Positions 130 to 46,980 of a stretch of 64,000 nucleotides of DNA are shown one piece after another; position 1 is the first letter of the stretch, and each line of letters starts with the position of its first letter. Made by a program: the position numbers and the translations under genes. The notes beneath the pieces are model-generated. The model was not told the DNA's origin. It did no database searches and worked only from the letters and a program-made list of their open reading frames with translations. Origin of the DNA: a virus; the IMG/VR virus record IMGVR_UViG_3300039008_000175, positions 1-64,000 of that record, one strand, 5' to 3'.

Positions 130-390
130 TTAATCCAGATACTCGTCGTCTTCGAAGTCTTCGAGATCCTCGTCTTCCTCAGAGTCTTCCTCTTCGGAAT
201 TCTCGTCATCATCTTCGTCGGATGATTCCATTTCGGAGTCATCGGATCCCAGGGAACCGTCGTCGAAATCGAGGTCTTCCAGATCAGTCATGGAATCTTC
301 GAGTTCGGCGTTGTCTACAAATGCAGACTCTTCGCCGAAAATGGATTCCATTTCGTCGACTTCATTTACATCGATATCATCAAAGTTCAT
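130..390 (-). CDS. small polyacidic protein (86 aa, about half D/E, no K/R/H)
   Basis: ORF track gives 130..417. I prefer the internal ATG at 390 because AAGGAG lies 6 nt upstream. Translation MNFDDIDVNEVDEME...EDFEDDEYLD. Confidence 0.6.
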   Translation of the reverse strand: MNFDDIDVNEVDEMESIFGEESAFVDNAELEDSMTDLEDLDFDDGSLGSDDSEMESSDEDDDENSEEEDSEEDEDLEDFEDDEYLD

Positions 391-450
391 ATGTATCTCC
401 TTATTCTTTTTGTTCATGTCACTATATCATAGCGTTATTGTTCGCTATAA

Positions 451-9428: not shown

Positions 9429-9438
9429 ATCTGTACAC

Positions 9439-10044
9439 ATGTTTGATGAATTCGATATGGAAGACCTCGATGACGAGCTCGAGCTGGAAGGCCAGGAAGA
9501 ACTCGAAGACCTGGAAGATGATCATGCCGATATGGAAGAGTTCGACGATTGGGATATGGAAGACCAGTCCCTGATGTTCTCTCTGTTCGCCCGTGATCTG
9601 ATTTCCGAAGGTGAGCTGGAAGCCGCCGATCTGGAAGACCTGAGGGAAGACGGCGTTCTGGATGACGACCAGTACCATGCGGTAATGGAAGACACCAGGA
9701 ACATCGTTCGTCTGAATAAGTCCGCCAAGAAGGCTGCCCTGACCGAGAAGGCTATCCTGGTTATGGCCAAGCAGGCCCGGGATCCCGAGTACAAGAAGTA
9801 CCAGAAGTTCCGGAAGCTGATGCTGAAGTCCAGAGCCAAGCTTCAGAAGAAGTACGGTTCCAGAGCCAAGGGTATGGCCATGAAGATGGCTGCCAACGGC
9901 AAGAGACGCCGTCAGAAGAAGGGCACCAAGAAGGTTGCATCTGCCATCCAGACCAACCTGAAGAATCCCACGCTGCGCGGTGGTTCCACCAAGCAGTTCA
10001 CCAAGAAATCCGGCTTCAAACCCAAGGGTGTAAGTCGGGCGTAA
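9439..10044 (+). CDS. bipartite protein: polyacidic N-terminal third, strongly basic C-terminal half (201 aa)
   Basis: TAAGGAG RBS, C-ending codon bias and a strong terminator directly downstream. N-terminus MFDEFDMEDLDDELELEGQEELEDLEDD; C-terminus KRRRQKKGTKK...KKSGFKPKG. Confidence 0.75.
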   Translation: MFDEFDMEDLDDELELEGQEELEDLEDDHADMEEFDDWDMEDQSLMFSLFARDLISEGELEAADLEDLREDGVLDDDQYHAVMEDTRNIVRLNKSAKKAALTEKAILVMAKQARDPEYKKYQKFRKLMLKSRAKLQKKYGSRAKGMAMKMAANGKRRRQKKGTKKVASAIQTNLKNPTLRGGSTKQFTKKSGFKPKGVSRA

Positions 10045-10069
10045 GTTCACACGTAAAGTGAATATATTA

Positions 10070-10097
10070 GCAGGGGCATAGTTGCCCCTGCTTTTTT
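10070..10097 (+). terminator. intrinsic terminator
   Basis: gcaggggc-atagtt-gcccctgc followed by TTTTTT. Confidence 0.8.
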
Positions 10098-10128
10098 GTA
10101 TCTCAAAAAGTGAAACCGTGTACATATC

Positions 10129-21643: not shown

Positions 21644-22555
21644 TTAAAGGAACTTACATCCAGCTCTCAGTGCATTCTGAGTAGCGTTCCGAAGAACATC
21701 ATCGACTTTCATGAAAGCTCTGGCGTATTCACCATCTTTGAAGATAGCGTTCTCACCATCGAAACCTTCCAGCTCCAGGCCAAGGTACTCAGTAGCGAAG
21801 CGTACGTCGTCAGACCCTTCAAAGAGCATATCGTTGGCGATCTCTATGATGGATTCCATCTCACCCTGTATAACAGCAGCGGGTGTATCGACAGCGATTT
21901 TCTTACCGATCATTGCCATCAGCGCTTCGGTATTACCAAGCCCGTTGGCTGCGTCGGCTGTCTCATTGGAGGGAGACATTACATTATCGGTAGTGATGTA
22001 CCGATAAGGACCCATAGACATCCTGACACCTCTGGCTCTATCCACAACTTTTCTGGATGAGCTAAAGAGTCTGATGCTACAGGCAGGAACTTCTCCATTG
22101 AGTAAGATGTCCCTGGCAACGGTAGGTCCATAAGGACCAGACGTGGAGAACAGTCCGTACGCTGCTTTGTTCCGGAAATCGATCCGGTGAATGGTATGAC
22201 AAGCACGAGACCTGTCGACCGTTCCGATTCTCTCTTTGCCGGAGTTCCGGGGAGGATGATCGTATTCGCCTTTGAGTCTGTTTTTTCTCATTGTATCTGA
22301 TACAATGAGATGACCTACGGTGGCGTCGTAAAACGGTTTCTCCTGAAATACTTTCAGGTTCCTGGATGCTTTACTGACGTCGTCGAAGTCACACATCTTG
22401 GTGCTGTATCTGACGAACGGATCGGCATTGGAAGGTGTTCCTCCCATACCCGGCATCCTTGCTTCTTCCAGCTCAAACTCGATGGTTTCACAGGGTACAC
22501 CCATGTACATTTCCATCTCGAGAGCTTTCGGTTTAATATATGCAGGACCAGTCAT
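21644..22555 (-). CDS. prohead maturation protease, T4 gp21-like
   Basis: ORF track gives 21644..22657. The ATG at 22555 has AAGGAG upstream. Blocks LKGEYDHPPRNSG, SGPYGPTVARDILLNG and VPACSIRLFSS parallel, from memory, the T4 gp21 blocks GELNHPPR / HGPGDKLAANIRAG / IPGVSSRGLGS, which carry the catalytic His and Ser. Confidence 0.75.
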   Translation of the reverse strand: MTGPAYIKPKALEMEMYMGVPCETIEFELEEARMPGMGGTPSNADPFVRYSTKMCDFDDVSKASRNLKVFQEKPFYDATVGHLIVSDTMRKNRLKGEYDHPPRNSGKERIGTVDRSRACHTIHRIDFRNKAAYGLFSTSGPYGPTVARDILLNGEVPACSIRLFSSSRKVVDRARGVRMSMGPYRYITTDNVMSPSNETADAANGLGNTEALMAMIGKKIAVDTPAAVIQGEMESIIEIANDMLFEGSDDVRFATEYLGLELEGFDGENAIFKDGEYARAFMKVDDVLRNATQNALRAGCKFL

Positions 22556-22635
22556 ATTTTTACTCTCCTTATTTAATATTGTTGCAGTAACTTTTACTAT
22601 TGTTAAACGACACCCAGAAAAGCGAGGTTTTGCTA

Positions 22636-24378: not shown

Positions 24379-25449
24379 ATGTATGATGAATTCGACGAAT
24401 TAGAAGATATCGAAATCGGTATAATTGATAATTCAAGTATGGATCTTATTCTCCCCGAAACCGAGGAGGTAGATGATACCGGCAACGAGCCCCCTGAAGA
24501 TGATTCGGATGCTGATAAAGTAGAGCTTGAGAAAAAGCTTTCTACCAAAGAGAGAAAAGAACTCCCGGATAAAGCATTTGGTCTTCCGAGTCAGAGGAAG
24601 TATCCTCTTTACGACAAGGACATGAATCCTGATGCTCAGCATATCCACAGTGCCGAATCCTATTTCAAGAAATGCCCTGATGAGGATAAGACCGAACTGG
24701 CCAATAACATCCTCAAAGCATGTAAGAAGGGCAAAATCAAATATAACAAAAACTCTGATTGGTATAAACATACCAGTGAGTATAAGAAAAAGAAACCAGC
24801 AAAGAAAGATCTTGAGTCTATGAGTCCTTTAGAGCGTCTTCGTTATATGCATACCGATATGGAAGCAGATGATGATGAAGACGGTGAAGAGGATAAAGAC
24901 AAAGACAACAACGGCATGGATGACGACTTAGAGACTCCAGGCACGGAAGATGATACGTCGACAGAAGATGACACCGATGAAAAGGACTCCGATGACGACA
25001 CAGGCGATGATGATTCTTCTTCTGATGATAGCAACGATGATGATACTACTGATGACGATTCATCTTCTGATGAAAGTGATTCTGACTCTGATAGTGGAGA
25101 TGATGATAGCTCTAGTGAAGAAGGCGGTGAAGAAGAAACCGAGCCGGAAGAAGATCCGGAAAATCCCACCCCCTTAAAGAGCAGATCTTTAGCAAGAGTC
25201 AATGCTCTCAATACTCATCTGAAAGAACTCTATGATTCATTGGTTGAGAAAGCGGCAGTAGATACTGACGATAGCAACTATGAAGACATCATGGGATTTA
25301 AAAGTACCATCGAACAGTATATCGATGTTGGGGTGACTCTCTTCTCATCCTGGAAAACTATCTCGGCCAGAGATTTTGCTGACCGCGTAGAAGAACTTAG
25401 GGTCCTTGTAGACGAATTGGTTGCGTCTATTAACGGACTTATCGAGTAA
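24379..25449 (+). CDS. acidic D/S/T-rich protein, scaffold-like by position (356 aa)
   Basis: AGGAGG RBS, immediately upstream of the capsid-candidate gene. About 100 aa of DDTSTEDDTDEKDSDDDTGDDDSSSDDSNDDDTTDDDSSSDESDSDSDSGDDDSSSEE. Confidence 0.55.
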   Translation: MYDEFDELEDIEIGIIDNSSMDLILPETEEVDDTGNEPPEDDSDADKVELEKKLSTKERKELPDKAFGLPSQRKYPLYDKDMNPDAQHIHSAESYFKKCPDEDKTELANNILKACKKGKIKYNKNSDWYKHTSEYKKKKPAKKDLESMSPLERLRYMHTDMEADDDEDGEEDKDKDNNGMDDDLETPGTEDDTSTEDDTDEKDSDDDTGDDDSSSDDSNDDDTTDDDSSSDESDSDSDSGDDDSSSEEGGEEETEPEEDPENPTPLKSRSLARVNALNTHLKELYDSLVEKAAVDTDDSNYEDIMGFKSTIEQYIDVGVTLFSSWKTISARDFADRVEELRVLVDELVASINGLIE

Positions 25450-25507: not shown

Positions 25508-27529
25508 ATGAATGTGAAACGTACACAGACTGTATCTGTGGGCGGAACCGAAACCGCCTCCGCCATTGTTTCTTCCATTCTTCATTCCGTAGAGGACTTC
25601 GCCAGAGGTGTAAGAGCCGGAAATCTTCAGAAGCCCAGAGCATTTGCCGACGCCGTTCTCGGGGGCAACGATGTAAGTGACCTCGAAGGTTACGCTGACG
25701 CATGTATCGCTCCCTACGAAGACATGGAAGGCATGGCTGCCGAACACGGTGCAGTAGATGCTGCCAGAGGTGTTATCGTTAACACCCTGAAGAGGATGAG
25801 TGGCCTCAGGGACAGAGGTGGAGCTTCTCCCGCTGTCATGGCTGACTATCTGGGTGTAGAGCCCGGAGAGATGGACCTTGAAAGTGCCGGTTACGGCTTC
25901 GGATGGGGTTCTGTTTCCAACATGAGCCACGTCACCGGTCCCGTCATCGCAGCTACCCTTCCCACGTCCTTCGCTTCCCAGATTTACCCCGTTGTAAATA
26001 TGGATCAGCCCAGGACCACCTTCGAAATCACCATCAACACTGTTCACCACGCCAACGGTATGGTTATCCGTGCTGAAGACCTGGGTTACTATGATGGTAA
26101 TCTCGGTGCCTTCGGTGAGAACGAAGAAGTTGCCATTACCAAGGTTTCCTCTCTGAACGGAGAGGAAGTCGTCGAAGTTGAAGCCGCTGCCGCTGCCGCA
26201 GGTGCCAAGTTCACCTACATCAAGGCCAACCAGAAATTCAACCTGGTTACCGCCGCTGGTCAGGCCCTCAACACCATCCCCCGGATGACTGTTGACCCCG
26301 CCACCCTGATGGTTGGTGGAATCGTCTACAAAGACACCGACGACAAGATCACCATGAAGCCCGTTAACATCCGCTCTTCCGTTGATTTCAGCGATTCCAG
26401 AGCCGTTAACCATACCGGTAACGTGGAGATCAAGCTGAAGAACGGTGAGACGATTACCGTTATGGTTACCCTGAACGTATCCGACATCGACCTCGGCGAC
26501 GCTGTCTGTGCTCTGGTTCCCCTGGGAACTTCCCTGAGTTGGGACAGCGGTGCTAAGACCTGTGAACTCCTCGGAGTTGTTCCCAAGTATACCTTCCGGA
26601 ACAACAACAACAAGGATACCATGACCAGAATGAAGCGGTACGAGACCAAGGAAGAACTCCGCATCCGGTCCGCTCCCCTGGTTAACATCCCCTACGACCC
26701 CCAGGTCGATGAGGATTCCAAGGCTATGGGTTACGACCCCGTCGCCAGTATGATCGATCAGGCCAAGAAGCACTTCAGCCAGGCCCTGGAAAGAAGAAGT
26801 ATCGAGTTCATCCAGAAGGTTGTCGCCGCCGGTCCCGGTAGCGGTATCTTCTCCGAAGGTAAAGGTGTCGGTGGGTCCAAGGACTTCGTCTACACTGATG
26901 TTATCGATCTGACTCCTCCCGCCAACTCCCTGGCTACCGGAGACTCCCTGCCCCAGTGGGCACGGAACTACTTCAACGACTCCATGAAGATGGTTCACGC
27001 CAGAGCTCAGGAAACCACCCGCGCACGCGATGTGACCTGGTTCTACGTGACCGACATCGTTACCACGGCCATGCTGCCCGGTGACAGAGCCGAAGTCGTT
27101 TCCGGTCCCCGTCTGAAGGGAGAGAAGGTTTCCGTTGAGAAACAGGGAATCAAGCTGTGGAAGAGCGCCAGTGGTCAGGATGCCTACTACCTGGTAGGTT
27201 CCGACTTCCTGAGCAACAACGTCAACCTGCACGCCCAGGATATCAAGAATACCCTGCGTGGTGATAAGGATGCGGCTGAGTTCCACGACATGAACAACGG
27301 TGTTCTGTTCGGTGTTGCCGTTCCCAACAGCAAGGTTGGAGACGCTGAGAAGACCATGGAATACATTACCTACGCCGTCAACATGGTTGAAGGTGTGGTT
27401 AACCCCATGGACGGTATGAACCAGGCGATCAACATCTACAACAGAGATATGTTCGTCAACTTCAGACCCATCGTTTCCCGTATCCTGGTTAAGGGCATCG
27501 ACGCCAAGACCAGATACAACGCCAAGTAA
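25508..27529 (+). CDS. major capsid protein candidate (673 aa)
   Basis: Strongest C-ending codon bias in the window, TAAGGAG RBS and a strong terminator at 27555-27585. It sits after a scaffold-like gene and before the portal candidate and terminase. The N-terminal 75 aa carries two [D][LM]EG motifs (propeptide-like). No direct homology recognised by eye. Confidence 0.6.
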   Translation: MNVKRTQTVSVGGTETASAIVSSILHSVEDFARGVRAGNLQKPRAFADAVLGGNDVSDLEGYADACIAPYEDMEGMAAEHGAVDAARGVIVNTLKRMSGLRDRGGASPAVMADYLGVEPGEMDLESAGYGFGWGSVSNMSHVTGPVIAATLPTSFASQIYPVVNMDQPRTTFEITINTVHHANGMVIRAEDLGYYDGNLGAFGENEEVAITKVSSLNGEEVVEVEAAAAAAGAKFTYIKANQKFNLVTAAGQALNTIPRMTVDPATLMVGGIVYKDTDDKITMKPVNIRSSVDFSDSRAVNHTGNVEIKLKNGETITVMVTLNVSDIDLGDAVCALVPLGTSLSWDSGAKTCELLGVVPKYTFRNNNNKDTMTRMKRYETKEELRIRSAPLVNIPYDPQVDEDSKAMGYDPVASMIDQAKKHFSQALERRSIEFIQKVVAAGPGSGIFSEGKGVGGSKDFVYTDVIDLTPPANSLATGDSLPQWARNYFNDSMKMVHARAQETTRARDVTWFYVTDIVTTAMLPGDRAEVVSGPRLKGEKVSVEKQGIKLWKSASGQDAYYLVGSDFLSNNVNLHAQDIKNTLRGDKDAAEFHDMNNGVLFGVAVPNSKVGDAEKTMEYITYAVNMVEGVVNPMDGMNQAINIYNRDMFVNFRPIVSRILVKGIDAKTRYNAK

Positions 27530-27554
27530 TCCCTTTTCGGGTTATAAAGCTAAG

Positions 27555-27585
27555 AGGCAGGTCCTTCGGGGCCTGTCTTTTTATT
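27555..27585 (+). terminator. intrinsic terminator after the capsid-candidate gene
   Basis: aggcaggtcc-ttcg-ggggcctgtct stem with a UUCG-type loop, then TTTTT. Confidence 0.8.
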
Positions 27586-27634
27586 GCCGTTTGTCATAAT
27601 AAGACAACACACCAAAAAGCAAGGAGGACACAAT

Positions 27635-30208
27635 ATGAAGTCACTTCAGTATAGTACTCATAGTCTGAAAGAGCACGCTCCTAAGCGTAAGCTTGTTAAG
27701 ACAGAAGGGGTACTCACGGCGAAGGACTATGAAAAGCGCCTCGATATTCTTGATATAATGCAGTTTGCTCAGGGTCAGGATATCATTGATGGTTCAGCTG
27801 TAGGTAGAGCCCACGAAGCTCTTCTTGGAGCTCTTAAATCCGCTTCTCTTGAGATGAATGAAGACTATGTCTCATATCTTATAGAGAGTGGTGCAGTGAA
27901 CACTGGACCTGATGTGCGCAACACACTGTACAGATCGATATTGAAAACATACACCAACGCCCTGAATAAGGTGAAGATTGGTTGTGAGTATTTCAATACT
28001 TTCGGTCTGAAAGATGACTCTATCGCCGATAATCTTAAATTGAAAGATATCACCAAGAAAGTCAAGAAGTTCTGTCCTGATCTTTTCACTCGGGATACAC
28101 ATGATCTGGATGAAGGAATTGTAAGTTCATTCAGAGCATACAGTGAGCTTCTGTTCTCGAACAAGCTGAATCTTCAGGCTCCTGATGATGTACTCACCTC
28201 TCTGGTGAATGACATTCTCATTCAGGGTGGTAAGGTTAAGCCCGGAACAGAAGCAGGACCTCTTAATGATGATAAGATGAAGCTTCCCATCAGAGTTGTA
28301 ACAGTTCCTGTGAACGATATCGCAGAGCTGACTACTGGCGATAGTCACTTCTTCTCATCTTACTTCGGAGAGTCGATTAAGGGGATGTGTGATGCCAACA
28401 AGTACCTCAGTTCCATGATCGATGCACTCCCCTTGAAGGGAACAACTCCTATCACTGGCGGTGAGTCTCATAGAGCGGGTATCGTTGCTCGTCCTATGAT
28501 CAACCCCAATTATCTGTCTGAGAAGAATGCTACCATGCTGGTAGACTATATCTCGGATAGAGTTCTGAGTACGCATACTCACAGGGAAGAAGATTTCTTC
28601 GATCAGTATATCATGAACCGGGATACATTCCCTGTAACACTCATGATCTACGTACCTGTACCTGCTGAGAATGATGATAACGACAATGAGTTCTTCGTCG
28701 CTCAGATTCTCCATCTCATTGCCCTGGTTGATGAGATCGTTGAAGGTGCTTCAATGTTCAGAGCCAGCAGCGCTAAGTCGTCTGTTCGCTCTCTCAATCC
28801 CAATACCGTTATCAACGAAGTGGATATCATGGAATATCTTCTTCAAGCGGTAATTGGTGAGCTTCGTCATGATGTCAATATGGCAGGCTCTGACCTGAGT
28901 ACAACCGATGCCAACGAGTACGGTAAAGCAAAGATGCTCTTTGAGATTCTTCTCAGTGGCGGTATACCCAGTACTGATAGTAGTAATCCGTATGATGCTG
29001 ATAGATATGGAAATACATTTCAGTCTCGTGCTGATATTATATCCTATCTTGTATCTGGTCTGGGTACCATCATTACAGGCGGCGGCCACAAAGATGCACT
29101 GTATTACCCCAGATCGGTGATTCAGAATCAGTATAAAGGTGGAGGCATTGGTCTCTCCTTTAAGATGAGTCAGCTCTTCGGAGGACTGGCTACTCTGAAT
29201 CTGGCTCTTATGCAGAGTAGGTTCCTTAACCATGAAGGTGAGGATAATGCACCCAGTGAAGTCCCCGGAAGTTTCGTGGATGGTAGCAGTAGAGTGTATA
29301 ACCATGCCAGCTCCAGTGTTGTTCTGAAGGCATTGAACTTCAATCTGTTCAATACAGAGCCCAATGCAGAGAGCTTCCTGAGAGGGAAGATCGTTGAGCA
29401 TTTCCAGTATAACGAGAATCATCACAACCAGTATGGTGTAGATGGTCTCCTTAGGCGTCTCATGCCCAACTCATATTACATGAGGAAAGACGAGTATGAT
29501 ATCAAGTACGATAAGAGAGGAACGCAGTTTGCTTTCGTTCTCTCACTCATTGATATGGTATGTGGCATATCTCCTATATCCACCATTATGTGTGGTAAGG
29601 GACCCAACAATCATCTGGAGCTCTTCGCTGAAAAGGGACGGCTTGATCCTGCGATCATCAGCCCCTTCCAGACAAGAAGAATAGACTCCATGTACACGAA
29701 CAGTGAAGAGACCCAAGCCGTTATCATGTACCTGTACAAGAAGCTCATTGTGAGCAGCGTTGTGTCTATCAACGAACTGGTACATGCCAATAGAAGATCT
29801 ATTGGTGGAATGGAAACTCTTGAGCTGGAGAGTGTAAGAGGGTACTACAAAGAACTCTACAGTGAGTACGAAGCAGAATCCCTTCAGTCTCTCAGAGATG
29901 TGAAGAAGCTCGGCTATTCTCATGAAGAGATCGATGTATGTGCTTTCACATATCACACTCTCATCAACGATGAAGACCGTTGGATGCTGATGAGTCGTAT
30001 CTCCAGAAATGTAGATAGAGCTCAGAAGGTCCTTAGAAGTAATCCTCCTGAAGAGGAGAAGGTTATGATTCAGGACTTCATCGAACACATGCAGGAACTG
30101 CGGGAGAAGACACGCGGTAAGAAGATAGCTAAAGCCTCCGAGGCTCCTCTGGTATCATTTGGTTTTGAAGCCAATGAAGACATCCAGGAGATCTTTGAAA
30201 AGGTCTAA
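27635..30208 (+). CDS. portal protein candidate (857 aa; positional call only)
   Basis: ORF track gives 27584. The ATG at 27635 follows AAGGAGG. Large protein between the capsid candidate and the terminase. Confidence 0.4.
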   Translation: MKSLQYSTHSLKEHAPKRKLVKTEGVLTAKDYEKRLDILDIMQFAQGQDIIDGSAVGRAHEALLGALKSASLEMNEDYVSYLIESGAVNTGPDVRNTLYRSILKTYTNALNKVKIGCEYFNTFGLKDDSIADNLKLKDITKKVKKFCPDLFTRDTHDLDEGIVSSFRAYSELLFSNKLNLQAPDDVLTSLVNDILIQGGKVKPGTEAGPLNDDKMKLPIRVVTVPVNDIAELTTGDSHFFSSYFGESIKGMCDANKYLSSMIDALPLKGTTPITGGESHRAGIVARPMINPNYLSEKNATMLVDYISDRVLSTHTHREEDFFDQYIMNRDTFPVTLMIYVPVPAENDDNDNEFFVAQILHLIALVDEIVEGASMFRASSAKSSVRSLNPNTVINEVDIMEYLLQAVIGELRHDVNMAGSDLSTTDANEYGKAKMLFEILLSGGIPSTDSSNPYDADRYGNTFQSRADIISYLVSGLGTIITGGGHKDALYYPRSVIQNQYKGGGIGLSFKMSQLFGGLATLNLALMQSRFLNHEGEDNAPSEVPGSFVDGSSRVYNHASSSVVLKALNFNLFNTEPNAESFLRGKIVEHFQYNENHHNQYGVDGLLRRLMPNSYYMRKDEYDIKYDKRGTQFAFVLSLIDMVCGISPISTIMCGKGPNNHLELFAEKGRLDPAIISPFQTRRIDSMYTNSEETQAVIMYLYKKLIVSSVVSINELVHANRRSIGGMETLELESVRGYYKELYSEYEAESLQSLRDVKKLGYSHEEIDVCAFTYHTLINDEDRWMLMSRISRNVDRAQKVLRSNPPEEEKVMIQDFIEHMQELREKTRGKKIAKASEAPLVSFGFEANEDIQEIFEKV

Positions 30209-34306: not shown

Positions 34307-34359
34307 GTTTCTTTTATATGCCATATATCATTTAGAATTATTTAACAGGAGAATCATTA

Positions 34360-35772: not shown

Positions 35773-35807
35773 GGAGTAGTAGTTACTCAGTAACCTGTTA
35801 CAATTAT

Positions 35808-39246: not shown

Positions 39247-40197
39247 TTAGTCTTTGTTCTTTTCATCGCGCTCTTTCTTTGCGGAATGAGCGGCCAGTTT
39301 GGCAACGGCGGACTTGATGTTCCGTCTTCTCTGCATGATCAGACCGGCGCCCTTTCTGGTGTACTCAAGAGCCTTATTCAGGTTCTTCTTGAGGGTTCCC
39401 AGGCCGCTGCGAGCAGCGTCGTCGAAGTTGGAGGTCTTCATCTTCTGAACGGTCTTTTCCATCTTCTTCAGCTCGTCGTTGGCGGTGGTCAGGAACTTGC
39501 GGTCGGCTCTGGCTTCTACGAACAGTTCGTGAAGCTTGTTCTCGTTCAGATCGGAGAGTCTGACCTTGACGGTCTTGTTGATCTTTCCGCCCTTCAGGAA
39601 GAGCTTGGCCAGCTGATCATCAACCTTGCCACCTTCGGTGCTGGTATCGCCAGCTACGCTACCCTTCTTGTCCTTGTCGCCTTCAGCCTTATCAAAGGCA
39701 TCGACGGCGGCCTGGAACTTGTCGGTATAGGCTTTCATCTCGCCTTCCAGCTTGGAACCGCTGGAAGCGTCCCAGTTCCAGGACAGCATTTCCATGGTAT
39801 CCTTACAGGAGGAGGCGTGTTCGAAAGCCTTGGAGGCTCTCTTGTCCCACCAGGAGGAGTCGGCTTTGGTGAACTGCTTGTCCAGAGCGTCCCGGATCCA
39901 GGCCATGATGGACTTGATCTTGGCGGACACAGCGTCGGCCCACTTATTGATGGTGTCCATGAATGCACCTTCCATATCGGCTTCACTGGGGTCTGCAGCC
40001 CAGCCTTCCAGGTCACTGAAGTAGTTTTCCTTGTCCTTCACCGCTTCCATAGCGGTGCACATGAAGCGTACCTCTTCCCAGGCTTCACGGCATACATCTT
40101 CACATTCGGAGATGATGCCTTCAACAGCGTAGGCGTTCATACCGCCAACGTTGTAGTCGCTCGTAAGGTCCTTACGAATATCACTAACACTAATCAT
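39247..40197 (-). CDS. paralog family member 1 (316 aa), candidate internal head / ejected protein
   Basis: AAGGAG RBS and C-ending codon bias. N-terminal ...SDLEGWAADPSEADMEGAF then helical KIKSIMAWIRDALDK, alignable to members 2-5. K-rich C-terminus. Confidence 0.75.
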   Translation of the reverse strand: MISVSDIRKDLTSDYNVGGMNAYAVEGIISECEDVCREAWEEVRFMCTAMEAVKDKENYFSDLEGWAADPSEADMEGAFMDTINKWADAVSAKIKSIMAWIRDALDKQFTKADSSWWDKRASKAFEHASSCKDTMEMLSWNWDASSGSKLEGEMKAYTDKFQAAVDAFDKAEGDKDKKGSVAGDTSTEGGKVDDQLAKLFLKGGKINKTVKVRLSDLNENKLHELFVEARADRKFLTTANDELKKMEKTVQKMKTSNFDDAARSGLGTLKKNLNKALEYTRKGAGLIMQRRRNIKSAVAKLAAHSAKKERDEKNKD

Positions 40198-40205
40198 TAC
40201 TGATT

Positions 40206-40229
40206 CTCCTTATTTCTTTTGTATTTGTT
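40206..40229 (-). promoter_or_regulatory. class-2-like upstream motif (minus strand) AACAAAT-ac-AAAAGAAA-TAAGGAG
   Basis: AACA begins 32 nt before the ATG at 40197 (paralog 1). Confidence 0.3.
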
Positions 40230-40251
40230 CTGTTGCGATGAACGAAGAATA

Positions 40252-41301
40252 TTATTTCTTCTTTCCCTTCTTGTTGGTCTGAGCAGCCTTAACGGCAGCC
40301 TTGAAACCCTTCTTGAGGTCGCTTCTGCGGCTCATGATGGCCTTCATACCAGCTTTACACACAGCGATCTCTACATCGTAGAAGACCTTGATGGCACCGA
40401 TGGTATCGTTGATAACCTTACCGGCGCTTGCCTGTGCTCCGCCAACCTTGGCGTTGTCGGGGAGAGAGATCTTGTCCAGAGCGGCTTTCTCTTTCTTGAG
40501 AGCCTTTCTCATGTTATCCAGAGCCCGTCTATCTTCAACGGCCTTGGATACGAAGTTCATACCCTTCTCGTTACAGAACTCACTGAAAGAAACTTCGGAT
40601 TTGGTGCCCAGTCCGGTTTCACTTCCGGTCATGACACGTCCGACGAACTTCTTGGCGATTTCCGAGGGAACGGGTGCGTCGGGAGCGTTACCGCCTACCA
40701 GACCCTGGTAGATCTTGTTCTTGAGAGACTTAGCTCTGGACTTTTCAACCGCTTCAGCACCTCTGAAGATACCGTCATCGACCGTATCGATCTTGTCGAT
40801 ATATCCATCCAGCGCTTTTTTGGCGTCCTTGGAGCTTGCCTCGAACTGTTCTACGATATCCTTACCTTCACCGAAGGACCACTTGGCACTCATGGTTACT
40901 TTACCGCTGAGTTTGGCAGCGACGCCAATGAGTTCGGATCTTCCCTTGATGAATTTCTCATCACGGTTTGCCTTGAGCTTATCCAGCATCTTGTTGATGT
41001 AGGAAAGCATCTTATCGATGAGTTCCTTGATCTTGTCGATTACCTTCTTAGCTCCGCCCTTGATACTATCAAGAGCCCCTTCCAGTTCTGCGGTGGTGAG
41101 CACGTCTTCGAGTTCCAGTTCCCGACATTCAATGCCGACCCCGACCGTAATGGCCTCGAGGTCAGCCATGGCGTCAGACACTTCTTCCATAGCCTCGTTA
41201 ACGATGCCTTCCTGTTCGATCAGCTGAACCTGATCGAAAGCCATCGGCGTAGGCAGGACGTCTCTCGTGGACTGCTCCCGCAGATTCTCTAATACTGACA
41301 T
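40252..41301 (-). CDS. paralog family member 2 (349 aa)
   Basis: AAGGAG RBS. ...SDAMADLEAITVGV...TTAELEGALDSIKGGAKKVIDKIKELIDKMLSYINKMLDK. C-terminus QTNKKGKKK. Confidence 0.75.
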   Translation of the reverse strand: MSVLENLREQSTRDVLPTPMAFDQVQLIEQEGIVNEAMEEVSDAMADLEAITVGVGIECRELELEDVLTTAELEGALDSIKGGAKKVIDKIKELIDKMLSYINKMLDKLKANRDEKFIKGRSELIGVAAKLSGKVTMSAKWSFGEGKDIVEQFEASSKDAKKALDGYIDKIDTVDDGIFRGAEAVEKSRAKSLKNKIYQGLVGGNAPDAPVPSEIAKKFVGRVMTGSETGLGTKSEVSFSEFCNEKGMNFVSKAVEDRRALDNMRKALKKEKAALDKISLPDNAKVGGAQASAGKVINDTIGAIKVFYDVEIAVCKAGMKAIMSRRSDLKKGFKAAVKAAQTNKKGKKK

Positions 41302-41308
41302 AAAGAAT

Positions 41309-41337
41309 CTCCTTGCTTATTATTTTATGTATGTTTA
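41309..41337 (-). promoter_or_regulatory. class-2 upstream motif (minus strand) TAAACAT-acat-AAAATAATAAGC-AAGGAG
   Basis: AACA begins 34 nt before the ATG at 41301 (paralog 2), just downstream of the internal terminator. Confidence 0.35.
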
Positions 41338-41360
41338 ATACCTTAGTAAATATCGACAAT

Positions 41361-41388
41361 AAAAATCCCCGGGAATTAACCCGGGGAC
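41361..41388 (-). terminator. intrinsic terminator inside the paralog array (after member 3)
   Basis: On the minus strand: ccccggg-ttaatt-cccgggg followed by ATTTTT. Confidence 0.7.
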
Positions 41389-41408
41389 GAAATTGAAAGT
41401 TGATGGAC

Positions 41409-42371
41409 TTAGTCCTTCTTCTTATCTTCTCTTTCCTGCTTCTTCACCTCGGTAATGATCTTACCGAAGATACCCTTCAGGGAAGAACGGCGCTCTTTAC
41501 AGAGAGCCAGAGCGGTGCGGTTCAGGTTGATGGACAGGTTTACTGACTTCTTAATCTGACCCAGACCGGTCTTATAGATCTTGGCTTTGGCGTCTCCGCC
41601 TTCACTCTTTCTGTCGAAGGAAGCGGAGGACTTATCCAGAGTCTTCTTCAGCTTCTGGAGAGCAGCGATGGCCTTATTCAGCTCATCTTTCTCCTTGCGG
41701 CCGTCTCTCCAGATCTCAATGTACTTGAGATTGGCGAAGGTCTTCAGGGGATACTCTTTGTCCTTCTCGGTGTAGAAGTACTTCTTGATGACTTCCAGCT
41801 CGCCTTTCTTGTCATCAACGTTACCCATCAGAGAACGGGTTGCGCCGCCAGTGTCACTGGAGCTTCCACTTTCCAGACCGCTGATGACCTTATCCAGATC
41901 GTCGACGATCTTGTCGGTAGTCTCGGCGGCACCGATCTTGGTGTTGGTGGTCCACATCTTGGTCTTGACTTTGACCTTGTCAGCCAGTTTGGCACCGTCC
42001 AGGATGGTGGCTTCGTTCTTCTTCAGGAAGCTGTCATCCATCTTATCCAGAACCTTGTTGATGTACTCGTTGATCTTGGCGATGATCTTATCGATCACGG
42101 CCTTAACCTTGGCAATTGCGGCGCTGGCACCGTCTTTGACGCTGGACATGATACCTTCCATTTCCATGGAGTTGGCGTTTTCCATATCGACATCAGCGGT
42201 GACGGCCACTGCGACGCACATTGCTTCGAGGTCGGCGAAGTCATCACTGATCTCGTCCAGAGATGCTTCCAGGTCTGTATTGAACAGAGTGGGAATCAGA
42301 GTAGCGGAGGAAGTACCTTCAGCACCACCCATACCCATACGGGATGCAAGAGCACTGGGAATATTATGCAT
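41409..42371 (-). CDS. paralog family member 3 (320 aa)
   Basis: TAAGGAG RBS. ...SDDFADLEAMCVAV...NSMEMEGIMSSVKDGASAAIAKVKAVIDKIIAKINEYINKVLDK. C-terminus KKQEREDKKKD. Terminator downstream. Confidence 0.75.
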   Translation of the reverse strand: MHNIPSALASRMGMGGAEGTSSATLIPTLFNTDLEASLDEISDDFADLEAMCVAVAVTADVDMENANSMEMEGIMSSVKDGASAAIAKVKAVIDKIIAKINEYINKVLDKMDDSFLKKNEATILDGAKLADKVKVKTKMWTTNTKIGAAETTDKIVDDLDKVISGLESGSSSDTGGATRSLMGNVDDKKGELEVIKKYFYTEKDKEYPLKTFANLKYIEIWRDGRKEKDELNKAIAALQKLKKTLDKSSASFDRKSEGGDAKAKIYKTGLGQIKKSVNLSINLNRTALALCKERRSSLKGIFGKIITEVKKQEREDKKKD

Positions 42372-42378
42372 AATATAT

Positions 42379-42404
42379 CTCCTTATTCTTTTTTCTTATG
42401 TTTA
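42379..42404 (-). promoter_or_regulatory. class-2 upstream motif (minus strand) TAAACAT-aag-AAAAAAGAA-TAAGGAG
   Basis: AACA begins 31 nt before the ATG at 42371 (paralog 3). Confidence 0.35.
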
Positions 42405-42420
42405 TCATGATAAGCAAGAA

Positions 42421-43458
42421 TTACTTCTTTTTCTTATCATCCTTCTTGTTCTTCTTGTCATCAGCGGCGATAGCAGCGAATGCCGACTTGAGTTCTCTCT
42501 TCCGAGTACCGATAAGAGAGATGAGTCTCTTGGTCTGGCTACTACATGCCATTACAGCACTGCGGTTGGCACTGATAAGATCAGTCACTGCCTTGTAAGC
42601 AGTCTTCTTGTCCTTCAGATGATCGAAGTTTGAGATAGTCAGAGACTTCTCGGCCTTCTCAATGGTCTTTTGAAGGTTCTTCAGAGCAGCGATCTCTTTC
42701 CTGGTGTTGGTGAAGAGGTCCATGTACTTGGGACTGGCAAACGTACCAGCGGGTCTGGGCTTCGCCTCGCCGTCAGCCATCAGGAGCTTATCCAGGTGTT
42801 CGACGTAGTTGGCTTTGTTCAGATCACTATTGGCTACTTTGAGCTGCTTCCTTACATCTCCCAGATCACCACTACCTGATACTTTGGTGAAAGAACCAAG
42901 TATGCCTTTGATGAATCCGATAACACGAGAAGTGGCTTTCTTAACCTCTTCCTCCTTGGCTGCCTCAGGCTGCTCTTCTTTGATATTTGCAACATCAGAG
43001 AGCTCATCGGCTACTTTGGGGACGAGGTTGCAGACAGCTTCGACTTTCTTGGTATACTCATCGATTTTGTCGTTCTCGAGCCAGTTATGAGCAGTGATAG
43101 TAGTCTTACACTTGCTCCCATTAGCGATAGCGTCCTTACGCTTTTCAACCCACTTGGAGTCATACTTGTTAAGGATGCCAGTGATGAAGTCTCCGATGTA
43201 CTTGCGGATCTTCGCAAGTACTTCTTTGATCTTCTCGATCACTTTCTTGATCGCATCGGTGACGACTTCCATACCTTCCATCTCGATGTTTTCACCGGCC
43301 AGGTTGGCTGCCACGGTGATACTTTCCATATCACAGGCTGCTTCGGAGAGCGCATCCTGAGCACTCTCTAAGTCCATAACACTGAGTCCCAGAGGAGTGT
43401 AGGACTGAGCATCATTTACAGACTTGAGATCCAAGTCAAATGTATCCATTAAACCCAT
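42421..43458 (-). CDS. paralog family member 4 (345 aa)
   Basis: ...ACDMESITVAANLAGENIEMEGMEVVTDAIKKVIEKIKEVLAKIRKYIGDF. C-terminus DDKKNKKDDKKKK. Confidence 0.75.
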   Translation of the reverse strand: MGLMDTFDLDLKSVNDAQSYTPLGLSVMDLESAQDALSEAACDMESITVAANLAGENIEMEGMEVVTDAIKKVIEKIKEVLAKIRKYIGDFITGILNKYDSKWVEKRKDAIANGSKCKTTITAHNWLENDKIDEYTKKVEAVCNLVPKVADELSDVANIKEEQPEAAKEEEVKKATSRVIGFIKGILGSFTKVSGSGDLGDVRKQLKVANSDLNKANYVEHLDKLLMADGEAKPRPAGTFASPKYMDLFTNTRKEIAALKNLQKTIEKAEKSLTISNFDHLKDKKTAYKAVTDLISANRSAVMACSSQTKRLISLIGTRKRELKSAFAAIAADDKKNKKDDKKKK

Positions 43459-43472
43459 TATTGTACCTTCCT

Positions 43473-44675
43473 TTATTTAATGTATTTTACAGCCAGATGT
43501 AGAGCCTTGAACAGGTCATCACTACGCTGCTTATTTATGCTTTGGTTTACTACGGGAATCTTCATTGCAACCTGGTATACTTTCGCTAGTTCTTTGAACC
43601 CACGTATAGCCATGTTGATAGTGGGATCTATCCTCTGACCAGTTGCTGTATTTGCTTTGGTGACGATAGTGTAATCCACTTTAGTCCTCAGCTTTTCGAT
43701 ATCGCCTATTGTTCTATCAATGAGTCTCATCTCATCTTTGAGCTGCCTGACCGTATCCTTGATATATGCATCTTCTTCAGCACTCCATCCTGCCTGGATA
43801 ATCAACGACGTATAATCGTTAATTATATCCCGGACGGGTATCTTCCTAGGCTTAACCTTAGGGGGGTCCATGTAAAGAATAGCACCCTCATCGATTATAT
43901 TTTGGACTTTTTTGGGGACGTACTTACCACTCTTCTGAGCGGGGAGTACATAAGCATGAAGAAGCTTATCCCGGAGATCCATTGGATTCTTCAGAGCTTC
44001 AGCAATCTTTTTACCATCTGAACCGCCAAACCCTTTTACATTACCACCACCTCGCATCAAACTGTGTTCGATATCTGAGTAGTCTTTGATGTTCCCGAGT
44101 TTCACGTCCAGGTTACTCGATAGAGTATTTGCTCTGTTACCCTTGGATCCTTCATAATCCCTGAGAGTATCGCTTTTCTCATCCAGAATAAACTCAAGAT
44201 TTTGAGTCATTCCTATTCTCCCAACAGAAAGACATTTATTTATCCGTTCACTGAGTTGAGAGATTGATGTATACATAAATGCTACAGGTGTCCCATCCTT
44301 AAACCCTAAGAACCAATCATACGTGTTGACTGTTACGTCCTTGGGTATATTCTGGATAGCATTAAGATTATTCGATATGCGCTCTTGGATGGTTTGCATA
44401 TTTCTTATTTGGCGTTTATGAGTAAGATTATGGAACCAGGCAACTAGTTCCATAATCTTATCTTTAATGAACCTGAATACGTTGAGAGCCATCTCTATCA
44501 GTTTCCTGGCAATATCGCCAATAATCTGACCAACTCCCTCCGCATCATAGCCCATTTCCTCTTCTGTAAGCGAGAGGTTCGCTGATACAACCATTGCCTC
44601 CAAATCTGAAGCTGAGTCATAAATATGATCCAGATCTTCAAACTCAGAGAACAATGATGTTGCATATTCAATCAT
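43473..44675 (-). CDS. paralog family member 5, divergent (400 aa)
   Basis: ATGA overlap with the upstream gene and AT-rich codon usage, unlike members 1-4. ...SASDLEAMVVSANLSLTEEEMGYDAEGVGQIIGDIARKLIEMALNVFRFIKDKI. Lacks the K-rich tail. Confidence 0.7.
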   Translation of the reverse strand: MIEYATSLFSEFEDLDHIYDSASDLEAMVVSANLSLTEEEMGYDAEGVGQIIGDIARKLIEMALNVFRFIKDKIMELVAWFHNLTHKRQIRNMQTIQERISNNLNAIQNIPKDVTVNTYDWFLGFKDGTPVAFMYTSISQLSERINKCLSVGRIGMTQNLEFILDEKSDTLRDYEGSKGNRANTLSSNLDVKLGNIKDYSDIEHSLMRGGGNVKGFGGSDGKKIAEALKNPMDLRDKLLHAYVLPAQKSGKYVPKKVQNIIDEGAILYMDPPKVKPRKIPVRDIINDYTSLIIQAGWSAEEDAYIKDTVRQLKDEMRLIDRTIGDIEKLRTKVDYTIVTKANTATGQRIDPTINMAIRGFKELAKVYQVAMKIPVVNQSINKQRSDDLFKALHLAVKYIK

Positions 44676-45868
44676 CAGAAGAGATCCATGTCGTCATCGT
44701 CTTCATCTACTGCTTCAGGCTGAGAGGTTTTTACATCATCGTAATTATCTCTCTCATCCTTTACAGTTTTGGACTTCTTGACGGCTTTTTTGACGTTCTT
44801 GTCGACGGTCTTGGTTGCCTTACTGTAGACCTCTTCATGTTCGTCGATGTCGATCTTCACATACGCTTTACGCAGGTTCTCGATTCTCTTCTTCTTACGC
44901 TCAGGATCCATGTCATCTTCTGATTCGATCTCTTTGATGAGCTCGTTCAGCATGATGGCTATTCTACCTCTAATGAAGTAGACGTAAAAAACACAGAACT
45001 GAATACTGATCAAAAGAAAGCTTGTTACCAGTGTAATGATAACACCACCGGCCAGGATTCCTCCAACCGCTTCCATATCAGCTTTACCTGTTTCTTCCCC
45101 AACTCCGCTGGAGATTCTACCATACTGCTCAAAGCTGTTGATGCAGGACTTAACGTACTGGTGATAAATACCCTTGTTAACATATCCTACGAACTGGTCG
45201 AGCTGTTCGGTAAAGGGGATGAAAGGACGGTGTACGCCATTACGTGACCTGAACAGTCTCCAGAGTCCTCTACCTTCATCTACGTTCTTAGCCAACAGGC
45301 CAAGCTTGACACAGTTTGCGATGTTGTAGGTAAGCGCAATAACCGTCATAACGTAGGGATTGAAGGCGATAAACTCATCTTCGGCTACTTTGCCGTAGAG
45401 AGACCGGTAGTACATCATATTATATGCGTTTACCGTTTTATGCATCTCGAGAAGATCGAACGCTTTAATAGTGAGTTTGAACTCTTCAGCGTATCCTTTC
45501 CCGAGCTTCTTTTCGATTGTTTTGGAGTCAAGCTTCCGGAGATAATCCGTGAGCTGCTTGAGCTCCCCGTAGTACTTATACCGTCTGAAGACACCCTGAG
45601 ATGCATTAATCTCTTTGATGACCTGTGAGTCATGAAGCTTGTCTCCGGTCTTGATACCAGATTTGAGCTTATAGACTCTGGACAGATACGTCAGGCGAAA
45701 CCTGATGTTCTTCATACCGGCTACTAACACCAGTGCTGTTGCAGAGAAGAACCCTCCGATCGTAGCGCCGATCTTCTTGAGGAACTGTCTCTGTGTTGCA
45801 GGTACTCTGGCTGCTTCCATCTCAGTCAAGAGACAGACGCCATCATCATATACTTTCTTGTCAAACAT
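44675..45868 (-). CDS. membrane protein with acidic C-terminus (397 aa)
   Basis: Hydrophobic segments IGATIGGFFSATALVLVAGM and VGGILAGGVIITLVTSFLLISIQFCVFYVYFI. C-terminus SQPEAVDEDDDDMDLF. Confidence 0.7.
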   Translation of the reverse strand: MFDKKVYDDGVCLLTEMEAARVPATQRQFLKKIGATIGGFFSATALVLVAGMKNIRFRLTYLSRVYKLKSGIKTGDKLHDSQVIKEINASQGVFRRYKYYGELKQLTDYLRKLDSKTIEKKLGKGYAEEFKLTIKAFDLLEMHKTVNAYNMMYYRSLYGKVAEDEFIAFNPYVMTVIALTYNIANCVKLGLLAKNVDEGRGLWRLFRSRNGVHRPFIPFTEQLDQFVGYVNKGIYHQYVKSCINSFEQYGRISSGVGEETGKADMEAVGGILAGGVIITLVTSFLLISIQFCVFYVYFIRGRIAIMLNELIKEIESEDDMDPERKKKRIENLRKAYVKIDIDEHEEVYSKATKTVDKNVKKAVKKSKTVKDERDNYDDVKTSQPEAVDEDDDDMDLF

Positions 45869-45876
45869 AGCTTACG

Positions 45877-46980
45877 TTACACTCCCGCCATCTTGATAAT
45901 TTCACGAACGTCCCGTGTAGACATCTTACCGTTCTTCTCAGCCAGATCACCCAGGTCGTTAACTTCCCAGGACTTCTGACCATCTTTGATTGTGAAGACT
46001 TCTTCTCTCACACCGTCGATGATTGCTACGGTTAAAAGCATGAGCTTATCCATAGTATTCCTGACGGATCTGAGACCTGATTCTTTGACGATATCAACAC
46101 CTTCATTTCTGCGGATGTTGTTATAGTCAGCTACGTCCATAAGGACGTTGAACCAGGGAAGCTTCTTCTTGTCGGAGAGAACGGCTTTCCTGAAGTAGTT
46201 CTCAACCAGAGCCTTGTTCATAGCAAATGCCCAGCCTTCGCCTTCCTGGTGAGACTTCTTTTCGATCTTGGCCATCGTCTTCATCTTCTCAAAGGCAAAG
46301 ATGATGTCATTGAAGAAGTTCACCTTTCCAGTCACCAGTCTCCTGAGCTGTACAATCAGTGCAGGCTTCAGGTTCATAGCGAACAGAGAAGTGAGAGTCT
46401 TGGCATTGACGTGGATGATCCGAACTTTAACTCCGAAGTCAAAGCTGATCTCCTGGGTCTTGGTATGGAATGTGTAGGTGAGAATACTGGGAGACTTGTT
46501 GTTGAACTTCTTGACGATGTTCTTACCATCGTTGGAGCTCATAGTGACATCAGCCCGGTTGTGAACCCTGTCAGGCTTATCACCGCCACCGCCTTTATTA
46601 GTAGACGGATGACCGCCTTTCTGAGGCCAGTTTCCAGCACCACGAGGAGCTGCTTCCATCTCGGCAGCTTCGGCGTTGTAGATCATTTTCATCATATCAG
46701 AGCCGGTTCCCTGCCTATCGATGATCGAGCTGATAGCCAGCTTGGTCATGATAACAAGTTCATTTTCCAGACTCTGAGCATACAGAGAAACGTCTTCTGC
46801 ATCACAATTGGATGATACCAGAAGATCGTAGTAGCACATTGATGCGTTCGCTTTCCTGGCAAGAGAGTCTCTTTTCAGATAACCCGATAGAGACTTCTTG
46901 AGAGCTTTGAGTTCATCAAATGCGCCCTCTGTCGTTCCGTCACCAATCATGATGTCGGAGATATCGGTAATTAACGACAT
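45877..46980 (-). CDS. hypothetical protein (367 aa), first gene of the minus-strand block
   Basis: ATG at 46980 preceded by AGGAGG. No motif recognised. Confidence 0.7.
   Translation of the reverse strand: MSLITDISDIMIGDGTTEGAFDELKALKKSLSGYLKRDSLARKANASMCYYDLLVSSNCDAEDVSLYAQSLENELVIMTKLAISSIIDRQGTGSDMMKMIYNAEAAEMEAAPRGAGNWPQKGGHPSTNKGGGGDKPDRVHNRADVTMSSNDGKNIVKKFNNKSPSILTYTFHTKTQEISFDFGVKVRIIHVNAKTLTSLFAMNLKPALIVQLRRLVTGKVNFFNDIIFAFEKMKTMAKIEKKSHQEGEGWAFAMNKALVENYFRKAVLSDKKKLPWFNVLMDVADYNNIRRNEGVDIVKESGLRSVRNTMDKLMLLTVAIIDGVREEVFTIKDGQKSWEVNDLGDLAEKNGKMSTRDVREIIKMAGV

Follow-up and report, generated by a model that had tools for sequence, protein, structure and literature searches.

A divergent prohead protease and its putative cleavage motif in an uncultivated phiKZ-like giant phage

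A prohead protease inside the head module

The stretch of viral DNA considered here, hereafter the window, comprises 64,000 nucleotides (positions 1 to 64,000 of the IMG/VR record IMGVR_UViG_3300039008_000175) and belongs to an uncultivated, deep-branching phiKZ-like giant phage. It encodes a prohead maturation protease, and a short motif, [DE]-[LM]-E followed by a small residue, recurs in its virion-candidate proteins, where it would mark the sites at which this protease cuts. A preliminary description of the window had recognized the protease from gp21-like His and Ser blocks, GEYDHPPR and CSIRLFS, and had taken a recurrent [DE]-[LM]-E-G tetrapeptide for its cleavage consensus. Both blocks are present, and the gene with its catalytic codons is laid out as follows.

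21644..22555, minus strand: prohead (head-maturation) serine protease, 303 amino acids (aa), recognized by S80 and PHROG profiles, triad and fold
22256..22258, minus strand: codon of the catalytic His100, inside GEYDHPPR (22247-22270), invariant in 75 sequences, aligned with H77 of SPN3US gp245
22076..22078, minus strand: codon of the catalytic Ser160, inside PACSIRLFS, invariant in 75 sequences, aligned with S153 of gp245
21986..21988, minus strand: codon of the catalytic Asp190, invariant in 75 sequences, aligned with D178 of gp245

The longest open reading frame (ORF) at this place extends from 21644 to 22657 on the minus strand. However, the ATG at 22555, where the preliminary description had also ended the gene, is a better start: an AAGGAG sequence lies 8 nt upstream and the orthologues all begin there. 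A divergent intergenic gap of 44 bp then separates this ATG from the gene starting at 22600.

Family searches place the protein in a known group, at a large distance. The Pfam model PF20034 (Peptidase_S80, the phiKZ gp175 family) gives 22.0 to 22.4 bits (E of about 1e-4), just below its gathering cut-off of 23.4 bits, while the head maturation protease family PHROG 3014 is matched with E=1e-8. By tblastn, the sole matching GenBank phage is Yersinia phage phiR1-37, through its head maturation protease g079 (29% identity over 43% of the query, E=9e-7). With a clade profile, 101 distant proteins were recovered from 1.84 billion cluster representatives; in a sample of 49 of these, 38 match Pfam S77 (T4 gp21) and 27 match S80. 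A search of PDB sequences with the protease profile returned nothing meaningful. In the 75-sequence family alignment, the invariant columns are E97, H100, P101, S160, R162 and D190. The catalytic His, Ser and Asp thus follow one another in the family order and correspond to the published triad of SPN3US gp245, H77/S153/D178 (PMC5694885).

The fold was predicted with AF2. Five sequences gave a pLDDT of 40 and the model built on the 75-sequence alignment was used instead; its pLDDT is 83.5 overall and above 90 over aa 40-200. The predicted layout consists of a catalytic domain (aa ~28-200), a disordered linker (~201-230) and a confidently folded C-terminal domain (231-303). In Foldseek comparisons of this model with the PDB, the top three matches are the T4 gp21 chains of 5JBL (E=3e-7, probability 1.00, TM 0.68 normalised to gp21). 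Herpesvirus assemblins come next, with weak scores (E of about 0.02, TM of about 0.3). The predicted model thus has an assemblin-like fold. Thanks to the triad, the predicted fold and the family searches taken together, the identity of the ORF as a prohead maturation protease with the assemblin fold, of the T4 gp21 (S77) and phiKZ gp175 (S80) group, is secure.

The gene lies inside a head-morphogenesis module. A virion structural protein (PHROG 18911) and the protease (minus strand) are followed by a 588-aa protein, an acidic, scaffold-like 356-aa protein, a 673-aa capsid candidate, an 874-aa protein and the large terminase (PHROG 32359, E=9e-40). This order is kept in three related metagenomic lineages (39-51% identity), denoted B (contigs L001-L003), C (L004) and D (L005 and L006) in what follows.

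A motif enriched beyond composition

All counts below refer to the 46 proteins called within the window (19,684 aa). These contain the nine [DE][LM]EG occurrences that the preliminary description had listed, against 1.5 expected from composition. Nine was reached in none of 500 whole-protein shuffles and in none of 1000 shuffles within blocks of 12, 20 or 40 aa. Since block shuffles never attain the observed number, local acidity fails to explain the motif. Even with 12-aa blocks, the Gly form has a mean of 1.6 and a maximum of 7, and the broader [DE][LM]E[GAS] form, observed 27 times, a mean of 5.1 and a maximum of 14.

In an unbiased scan of tripeptides, DLE (23 vs 8.3 expected) and ELE (21 vs 7.9) are the most enriched common ones. 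Scans of single positions, numbered as protease subsites, delimit the motif further. At P3, D (33 vs 12.1) and E (31 vs 11.5) are enriched, and this position is always D or E at the enriched sites. At P2, L (44 vs 16.2) and M (20 vs 7.4) are enriched whereas I/V are not (27 vs 27.3). At P1, E is enriched (64 vs 23.6) and D is not (34 vs 24.7). The P1' position accepts A (10), D (11), G (9) and S (8), each about 6-fold over an expectation of ~1.6, with I, F and Q never found; P4 leans towards A/S and P2' towards A/I/M. Control motifs differing at one position are flat, namely [DE][LM]D[GAS] (4 vs 4.8), [DE][IV]E[GAS] (7 vs 5.3) and [KR][LM]E[GAS] (3 vs 3.9), the latter meaning that K/R is not enriched at P3. 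Neither the phiKZ-type [SAG]-x-E-[GAS] (47 vs 53.5) nor the T4-type [LI]-x-E-[GAS] (42 vs 40.7) is enriched; for motifs as loose as these, little enrichment would be expected even if they were used.

The counts thus define the motif as [DE]-[LM]-E-[G/A/S(/D)], of which the Gly-only form is a subset; its G/A/S sites number 27, where ~5 would be expected. The L/M at P2 put forward in the preliminary description holds, but Gly is not the sole P1' residue, A, S and D being accepted as well.

The location of the sites is also biased. Twenty of the 27 fall within the first 130 residues of their proteins, a part that holds 30% of all residues (p=3e-6), and 26 of the 27 belong to 13 head-module or virion-candidate proteins: the protease, the acidic 356-aa protein, the capsid candidate, the 874-aa protein, five tandem paralogues, the proteins encoded at 44675, 45877 and 9439, and a 95-aa ORF. 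Sites are absent from the polymerase, helicase, primase, SbcC, terminase and HNH proteins (5116 aa in total) and from three tail-fibre-like proteins (~2800 aa) encoded in held-out sequence (9.7 kb) on the right-hand side of the window. The latter (contig L008, 4447-12892, ~1-9.5 kb past the right end of the window) are tandem paralogues of 980, 908 and 913 aa with similar N-termini; they are tail-fibre-like by appearance only, and a GNAT acetyltransferase gene precedes them.

Comparison of the lineages gives further information. [DE][LM]E[GAS] is enriched in lineage C (7 vs 1.0) and in lineage D (6 vs 0.9). Pooled over every orthologue set that could be aligned, 7 of 13 Glu residues belonging to [DE][LM]E are invariant, compared with 44 of 306 other Glu residues (p=0.0014); when only poorly conserved neighbourhoods are considered, the figures become 6 of 11 against 19 of 204 (p=4e-4). 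The positions of the sites within the propeptides turn over between lineages. In the 588-aa protein, a D[LI]ED is conserved across orthologues.

Sites in the capsid candidate

25508..27529, plus strand: major capsid protein candidate, 673 aa, assigned from context only (size, position, GC-rich codon usage, propeptide-like N-terminus)
25679..25690, plus strand: DLEG, aa 58-61
25721..25732, plus strand: DMEG, aa 72-75
25874..25885, plus strand: DLES, aa 123-126

The capsid candidate is encoded in a GC-rich island, between the protease and acidic-protein genes and the terminase. Its alignment across four lineages (39-45% identity) is divided by a sharp conservation boundary: invariant columns make up 9.6% of aa 1-125 (12 columns) and 50.7% of aa 126-200. 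The poorly conserved aa 1-~125 are thus a candidate N-terminal propeptide.

The DLEG and DMEG tetrapeptides noticed in the preliminary description are both present but they fare differently in the alignment. DLEG 58-61 is replaced by VLND, NKND and DLED in the relatives. In DMEG 72-75, E74 and G75 are among the 12 invariant columns of aa 1-125, and with Y70 they are the only invariant residues of the neighbourhood, P2 being M, A, I or L. A third site, overlooked at that stage, is better conserved: DLES 123-126 reads [DE][LM]E in all four lineages (DLES, DMEA, ELEG, DMED) and directly precedes the conserved core GWGxVSN. The capsid protein of SPN3US loses 130 residues (PMC5694885). Because of its conservation in 4/4 lineages, its place at the conservation boundary and this propeptide length, the E125/S126 bond is predicted to be the most likely maturation cut of the capsid candidate. 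By hhalign, the candidate has no similarity to SPN3US gp75, so that the predicted site cannot be mapped onto the experimental one.

Sites in the protease itself

21851..21862, minus strand: EMES, aa 232-235, candidate autocleavage site at the junction of the linker and the C-terminal domain
21764..21775, minus strand: ELEG, aa 261-264, within LGLELEGFDGE

In the relatives of the window, the same disordered linker contains analogous sites, DLE/A at 224 in lineage C and DME/G at 215 in lineage D. Autocleavage of SPN3US gp245 has been mapped at E203, 25 aa past the catalytic Asp (PMC5694885). Alignment with the C-terminus of gp245 is unreliable beyond this Asp and the distance alone was used; by this argument, EME234/S235 would correspond better to the gp245 position than ELEG does.

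The C-terminal ELEG, which the preliminary description had counted among the sites, is present and reads ELE[GS] in 4/4 lineages; as a place of autocleavage, it fits less well than the linker site. Its conservation is weak evidence for a site, since the whole block is conserved. In the wider family (n=75), the corresponding column has Glu in 24 of the 75 sequences and the next column Ser in 17, many sequences reading [A/S/T]-x-E-S as in phiKZ; x-x-E-[SG] is found there in about a third of the distant members. These observations are consistent with a shared autocleavage position whose P3 and P2 residues would follow the specificity of each lineage. E30 (FELE/E), another Glu of the protease, was dismissed as a place of N-terminal autocleavage, since it is ~90% conserved family-wide and lies in a core beta-strand.

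Other proteins with the motif

39247..44675, minus strand: five tandem paralogues of 316, 349, 320, 345 and 400 aa (genes 39247-40197, 40252-41301, 41409-42371, 42421-43458 and 43473-44675), candidate internal head proteins
44675..45868, minus strand: 397-aa protein, EME/A at aa 16-19 and DME/A at aa 264-267
45877..46980, minus strand: 367-aa virion structural protein (PHROG 23804, E=3e-8, aa 148-343), EME/A at aa 107-110
9439..10044, plus strand: 201-aa protein with an acidic N-half and a basic C-half (PHROG 26909, virion structural, E=6e-10, aa 87-159)
24379..25449, plus strand: 356-aa highly acidic, scaffold-like protein, between the protease block and the capsid candidate, DLE/S at 144 and DME/A at 160
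27584..30208, plus strand: 874-aa protein, portal candidate by position only, ELE/S at aa 747-750 (29822-29833)
130..417, minus strand: 95-aa ORF of uncertain gene status, 48% acidic, two EME/S and three [DE]LE/D
53568-56717, minus strand: 1049-aa protein, zinc-binding motif HEIGH at aa 624-628 followed by hydrophobic segments, Pfam Peptidase_M48 at 22.4 bits (cut-off 20.3) over aa 791-878

In each of the five paralogues, the N-terminal segment is acidic and terminates in x-E-G, and the C-terminal tail is basic. As announced in the preliminary description, [DE][LM]EG is found in the first four, as DLEG62 and DMEG74 (39247-40197), ELEG72 (40252-41301), EMEG70 (41409-42371) and EMEG59 (42421-43458), the fifth reading DAEG. 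The alignment of these proteins (13-28% identity) has six invariant columns, two of which are the E-G of [DE][LMA]EG. Further upstream, a D[LM]E[AS] is aligned in 4/5. A homologue search with the profile of the family returned only the proteins of the window itself.

The N-half of the 201-aa protein contains nine [DE][LM]E, including the ELEG at 15-18 already reported and ELEA at 59-62. In this protein, the PHROG-detectable domain begins downstream of the last site (sites to aa 62, domain 87-159). The same holds for the 367-aa protein (site at 107, domain 148-343), where the site is upstream of a Gly-rich linker and of the homology-detectable domain. In the scaffold-like protein, DMEA160 aligns with an ELEA of the lineage C orthologue. 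At the site of the 874-aa protein, just upstream of its best-conserved C-terminal block, the four lineages have ELES, ELED, DMEA and DLEA; E749 is invariant while none (0%) of the flanking columns is. As the substrates known for this protease family are trimmed of N-terminal propeptides, processing at a C-terminal site would be out of the ordinary.

In the 397-aa protein, DME/A directly precedes a long hydrophobic, transmembrane-like segment, and the C-terminal tail is very acidic. This protein may be a membrane-active ejection protein freed by cleavage. The 1049-aa protein is a second, unrelated peptidase candidate and has one DLE/A at aa 467.

Cleavage at the motif and alternative explanations

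In the proposed mechanism, the protease would act inside the prohead and cut after Glu, as all its characterised relatives do: T4 at L/I-X-E, phiKZ at S/A-X-E and SPN3US at A-X-E (PMC9026906, PMC5694885, PMC10052503). The preferred site would be [A/S]-[D/E]-[L/M]-E / [G/A/S, sometimes D], with an acidic P3, Leu/Met at P2 and a small P1', a position where SPN3US prefers Ser (PMC9026906, PMC10052503). The acidic N-terminal propeptide of the capsid candidate would be removed and diced, the final cut being probably E125/S126 and the internal ones E74/G75 and perhaps E60/G61; multiple internal sites are likewise found in the propeptides of phiKZ and SPN3US (PMC9026906, PMC5694885). In the five-member family of internal head proteins, the final cut would be at the invariant E/G around aa 60-77. 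Several other virion proteins would lose acidic N-terminal propeptides in the same manner and the scaffold-like acidic protein would be fragmented at its motif sites. Finally, the protease would trim its own C-terminal part, in the linker at E234/S235 and possibly at E263/G264. C-terminal autocleavage is known from the proteases of its relatives (PMC9026906, PMC5694885, PMC10052503).

We consider cleavage of virion proteins after the Glu of [DE][LM]E[GAS(D)] to be the best explanation of the data, with a probability of roughly 0.6. The pattern of a strict Glu and then a small residue agrees with P1 and P1'. The cleavage consensus of the preliminary description is thus favored by the enrichment, the N-terminal clustering, the conservation of Glu and the small P1', provided that the motif is broadened and its main sites relocated. 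Several observations weigh against it. The requirement for Leu/Met at P2 is without precedent, the selective subsite in the characterised relatives being P3 with P2 free. Paralogy inflates the raw counts, the nine listed sites representing four independent protein families because four of the carriers are mutual paralogues; when aligned paralogue sites are collapsed, roughly 20 sites remain against fewer than 5 expected. Enrichment is weak in lineage B (3 vs 1.6). In the protease, ELEG is part of a beta-strand predicted with confidence within the folded C-terminal domain, and the block around it is conserved in general. Cleavage is unlikely at two other conserved places, namely aa 30-33 of the terminase (30220-32394, plus strand), which read D[LI]E[EL] (DLEE, DIEE, ELEL), and E30 inside the catalytic domain of the protease; some conserved [DE][LI]E are clearly structural, as at this terminase N-terminus and at this core Glu. 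Lastly, two of the main putative substrates are defined by context or position. The capsid candidate has no Pfam, PHROG, tblastn or PDB-sequence match, and sequence and profile searches detected no homology to known major capsid proteins; for the 874-aa protein, no family, PDB or (by hhalign) SPN3US portal gp81 match was found.

Other explanations may be envisaged. That the recurrence is a by-product of an acidic, Leu-rich composition and of paralogue ancestry is effectively refuted: several carriers are indeed acidic and four of the listed ones are paralogues, but the 12-aa block shuffles stay far below the observed counts, near-identical control motifs are flat, and independent lineages as well as non-paralogous proteins are likewise enriched. 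It is also rather unlikely that the motif is selected without being cut, as a binding or assembly element of acidic N-terminal segments that would target proteins into the prohead, the element itself staying intact or being removed by cuts elsewhere. The partner might be the scaffold, the capsid interior or the C-terminal domain of the protease. The clustering of the sites in acidic, probably helical segments, the strand position of the protease ELEG and the conservation of [DE][LI]E at the N-terminus of the terminase and in the protease core would agree with such an element, and in T4 the N-terminal propeptides are capsid-targeting sequences (PMC5694885). Nevertheless, a strict Glu with a small residue, Asp, Ile and Val being rejected, resembles a protease subsite pattern; redundant cut sites account better than a fixed interface for the positional turnover within propeptides; and it is at the sites that unconserved sequence gives way to conserved sequence. 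Targeting and cleavage are, besides, not mutually exclusive.

With a similarly low probability, the protease might act but recognize something else than the motif as written. In one version, P1 Glu alone would be read and the [DE][LM] bias would reflect the local structure of the propeptides. The second capsid site conserves only E-G (P2 being M/A/I/L), the fifth paralogue has DAEG, and sites of phage 201phi2-1 were described as having 'extremely few other cleavage determinants' besides Glu (PMC9026906). However, L/M at P2 and D/E at P3 are each enriched ~2.7-fold while I/V is not, and likewise in the relatives of the window. In another version, the cut would fall one residue later, after G/A/S and with Leu/Met at P3, a hydrophobic P3 that would match the L/I of T4. 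The herpesvirus assemblin consensus, (V/L/I)-X-A/S, may be likened to this shifted register. This register is less likely, since conserved sites tolerate Asp in fourth place: at the third capsid site this residue is S, A, G or D while [LM]-E is fixed, a pattern that would be surprising in a P1 pocket but expected of a permissive P1'. Moreover, all the characterised S77/S80 enzymes need Glu at P1. Cleavage of the motif by a different enzyme, either the M48-like zinc metalloprotease domain of the 1049-aa protein or a host protease, is highly improbable. The HEIGH motif at aa 624, the Peptidase_M48 score (22.4 bits vs 20.3) and the motif site of that protein speak for it. We know of no precedent for an M48 enzyme in head maturation or with Glu specificity, whereas the serine protease is encoded in the head module, has motif sites in its own linker and C-terminal domain and is a member of a family cutting after Glu.

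The mature N-termini of the head proteins of giant phages normally have to be obtained by virion proteomics, which is impossible for uncultivated phages. If cleavage at the motif is true, the mature ends of the capsid protein and of about a dozen internal head proteins can be predicted from sequence, and propeptides can be separated from functional domains. A defined peptide substrate would also become available for a very divergent member of the family. That a prohead protease cuts after Glu at a short motif is already well established and the gain is, to this extent, incremental.

The genome and its relatives

The attribution to a phiKZ-like giant phage is based on two observations. Four genes of the split, beta/beta'-like RNA polymerase type are present in the window, PHROG 3015, 2962, 2987 and 2943 matching the proteins at 10188, 52334, 60561 and 19074, respectively, and the capsid candidate is recorded on a contig of 255,143 bp, above the 200 kb of a giant phage genome. 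The other genes of the window include a helicase, a primase, an SbcC-like gene, the large terminase and several PHROG 'virion structural protein' families. Adjoining the paralogue cluster, the following gene is the start of the tail module.

48140-49429, plus strand: 429-aa protein, PHROG 21400 (virion structural, E=7e-16); Pfam PF23971 'putative phage tail tube protein' at 25.8 bits, below the cut-off of 27

The lineage is rare. Only four homologues of the protease were found among 5.8 billion proteins searched, and scanning IMG/VR and JGI metagenome contigs with the capsid alignment revealed no relatives. Lineage C comes from a crustacean metagenome (ERZ922590) and lineage D from contigs of the NCBI assembly GCA_024449855.1, which has millions of contigs. 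The provenance of these nearest relatives (L004, L005 and L006) hints at hosts associated with aquatic invertebrates.

Three GC-rich islands (0.50-0.53 against 0.36-0.45 elsewhere) are located at 26001-28000, 34001-36000 and 58001-60000. They coincide with three genes, those of the capsid candidate, of a 470-aa protein (34360-35772) and of a 575-aa protein (58709-60436) whose N-terminus is rich in Gly, Asn, Gln and Met. Matches to Pfam and PHROG were found for none of the three. These are probably highly expressed structural genes with a distinct codon usage. Two antisense stop-free ORFs, 9412-10125 (minus strand, 237 aa) and 40219-41292 (plus strand, 357 aa), overlap the real genes 9439-10044 (plus) and 40252-41301 (minus). 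They are as long as these or longer and mislead gene calling by longest ORF.

Comparison with known systems

Among the closest known systems are those of phiKZ gp175 and SPN3US gp245 (S80, PF20034). They share with the window a His/Ser/Asp triad, aligned here to H77/S153/D178 of gp245, and a giant phage genome with split multisubunit RNA polymerase genes. In both cases the protease extends C-terminally past the catalytic domain, here with candidate autocleavage sites. The candidate capsid propeptide is of the same size, about 125-130 aa, and the cuts, as far as they can be deduced for the window, occur after Glu with a small P1'. On the other hand, sequence identity is only ~17-25%. In gp245, 89 aa follow the catalytic Asp, against 113 aa in the window protease, the C-terminal part of which is predicted to fold. 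The specificity would also differ, phiKZ having S/A/G and SPN3US A at P3 with a free P2, whereas the window would have an acidic P3 and Leu/Met at P2.

T4 gp21 (S77, PF03420; 5JBL) is the best structural match of the predicted model. This serine protease recognizes a three-residue motif, with the cut after Glu, and processes the capsid protein, internal proteins, the scaffold and itself, all of which is proposed for the window protease as well. The two proteins differ in sequence (~20% identity) and in P3, occupied by L/I in T4, [LI]-x-E-[GAS] being not enriched in the window. The targeting propeptides of T4 have 10-20 aa and its capsid propeptide 65 aa, against ~60-125 aa for the candidates of the window. 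With phiR1-37, the region of g079 has no synteny with the window, and the 40 kb around its protease have no clear [DE][LM]E[GAS] enrichment (5 vs 2.3). The assemblins of herpesviruses (human cytomegalovirus, pseudorabies virus) share the fold class and the role in capsid maturation with scaffold release. Unlike the window protease, they possess a Ser-His-His triad and have Ala/Ser specificity.

The window protease thus belongs, as a highly divergent representative, to a known protease family, and a variant specificity is plausible for it. There is about an even chance that the uncultivated clade has re-tuned its enzyme from a P3-driven motif to a two-subsite motif, with an acidic P3 and Leu/Met at P2 before the obligatory Glu. 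More than 20 sites in at least 9 protein families would have co-evolved with it, including an autocleavage position in the C-terminal domain common to the wider S77/S80 family, where P3 and P2 would track the lineage ([A/S/T]-x-E-S elsewhere, E-L-E-G here). If true, specificity within the gp21/gp175 family would have drifted from an aliphatic P3 to a small P3 and then to an acidic P3 with Leu/Met at P2, Glu at P1 remaining fixed throughout.

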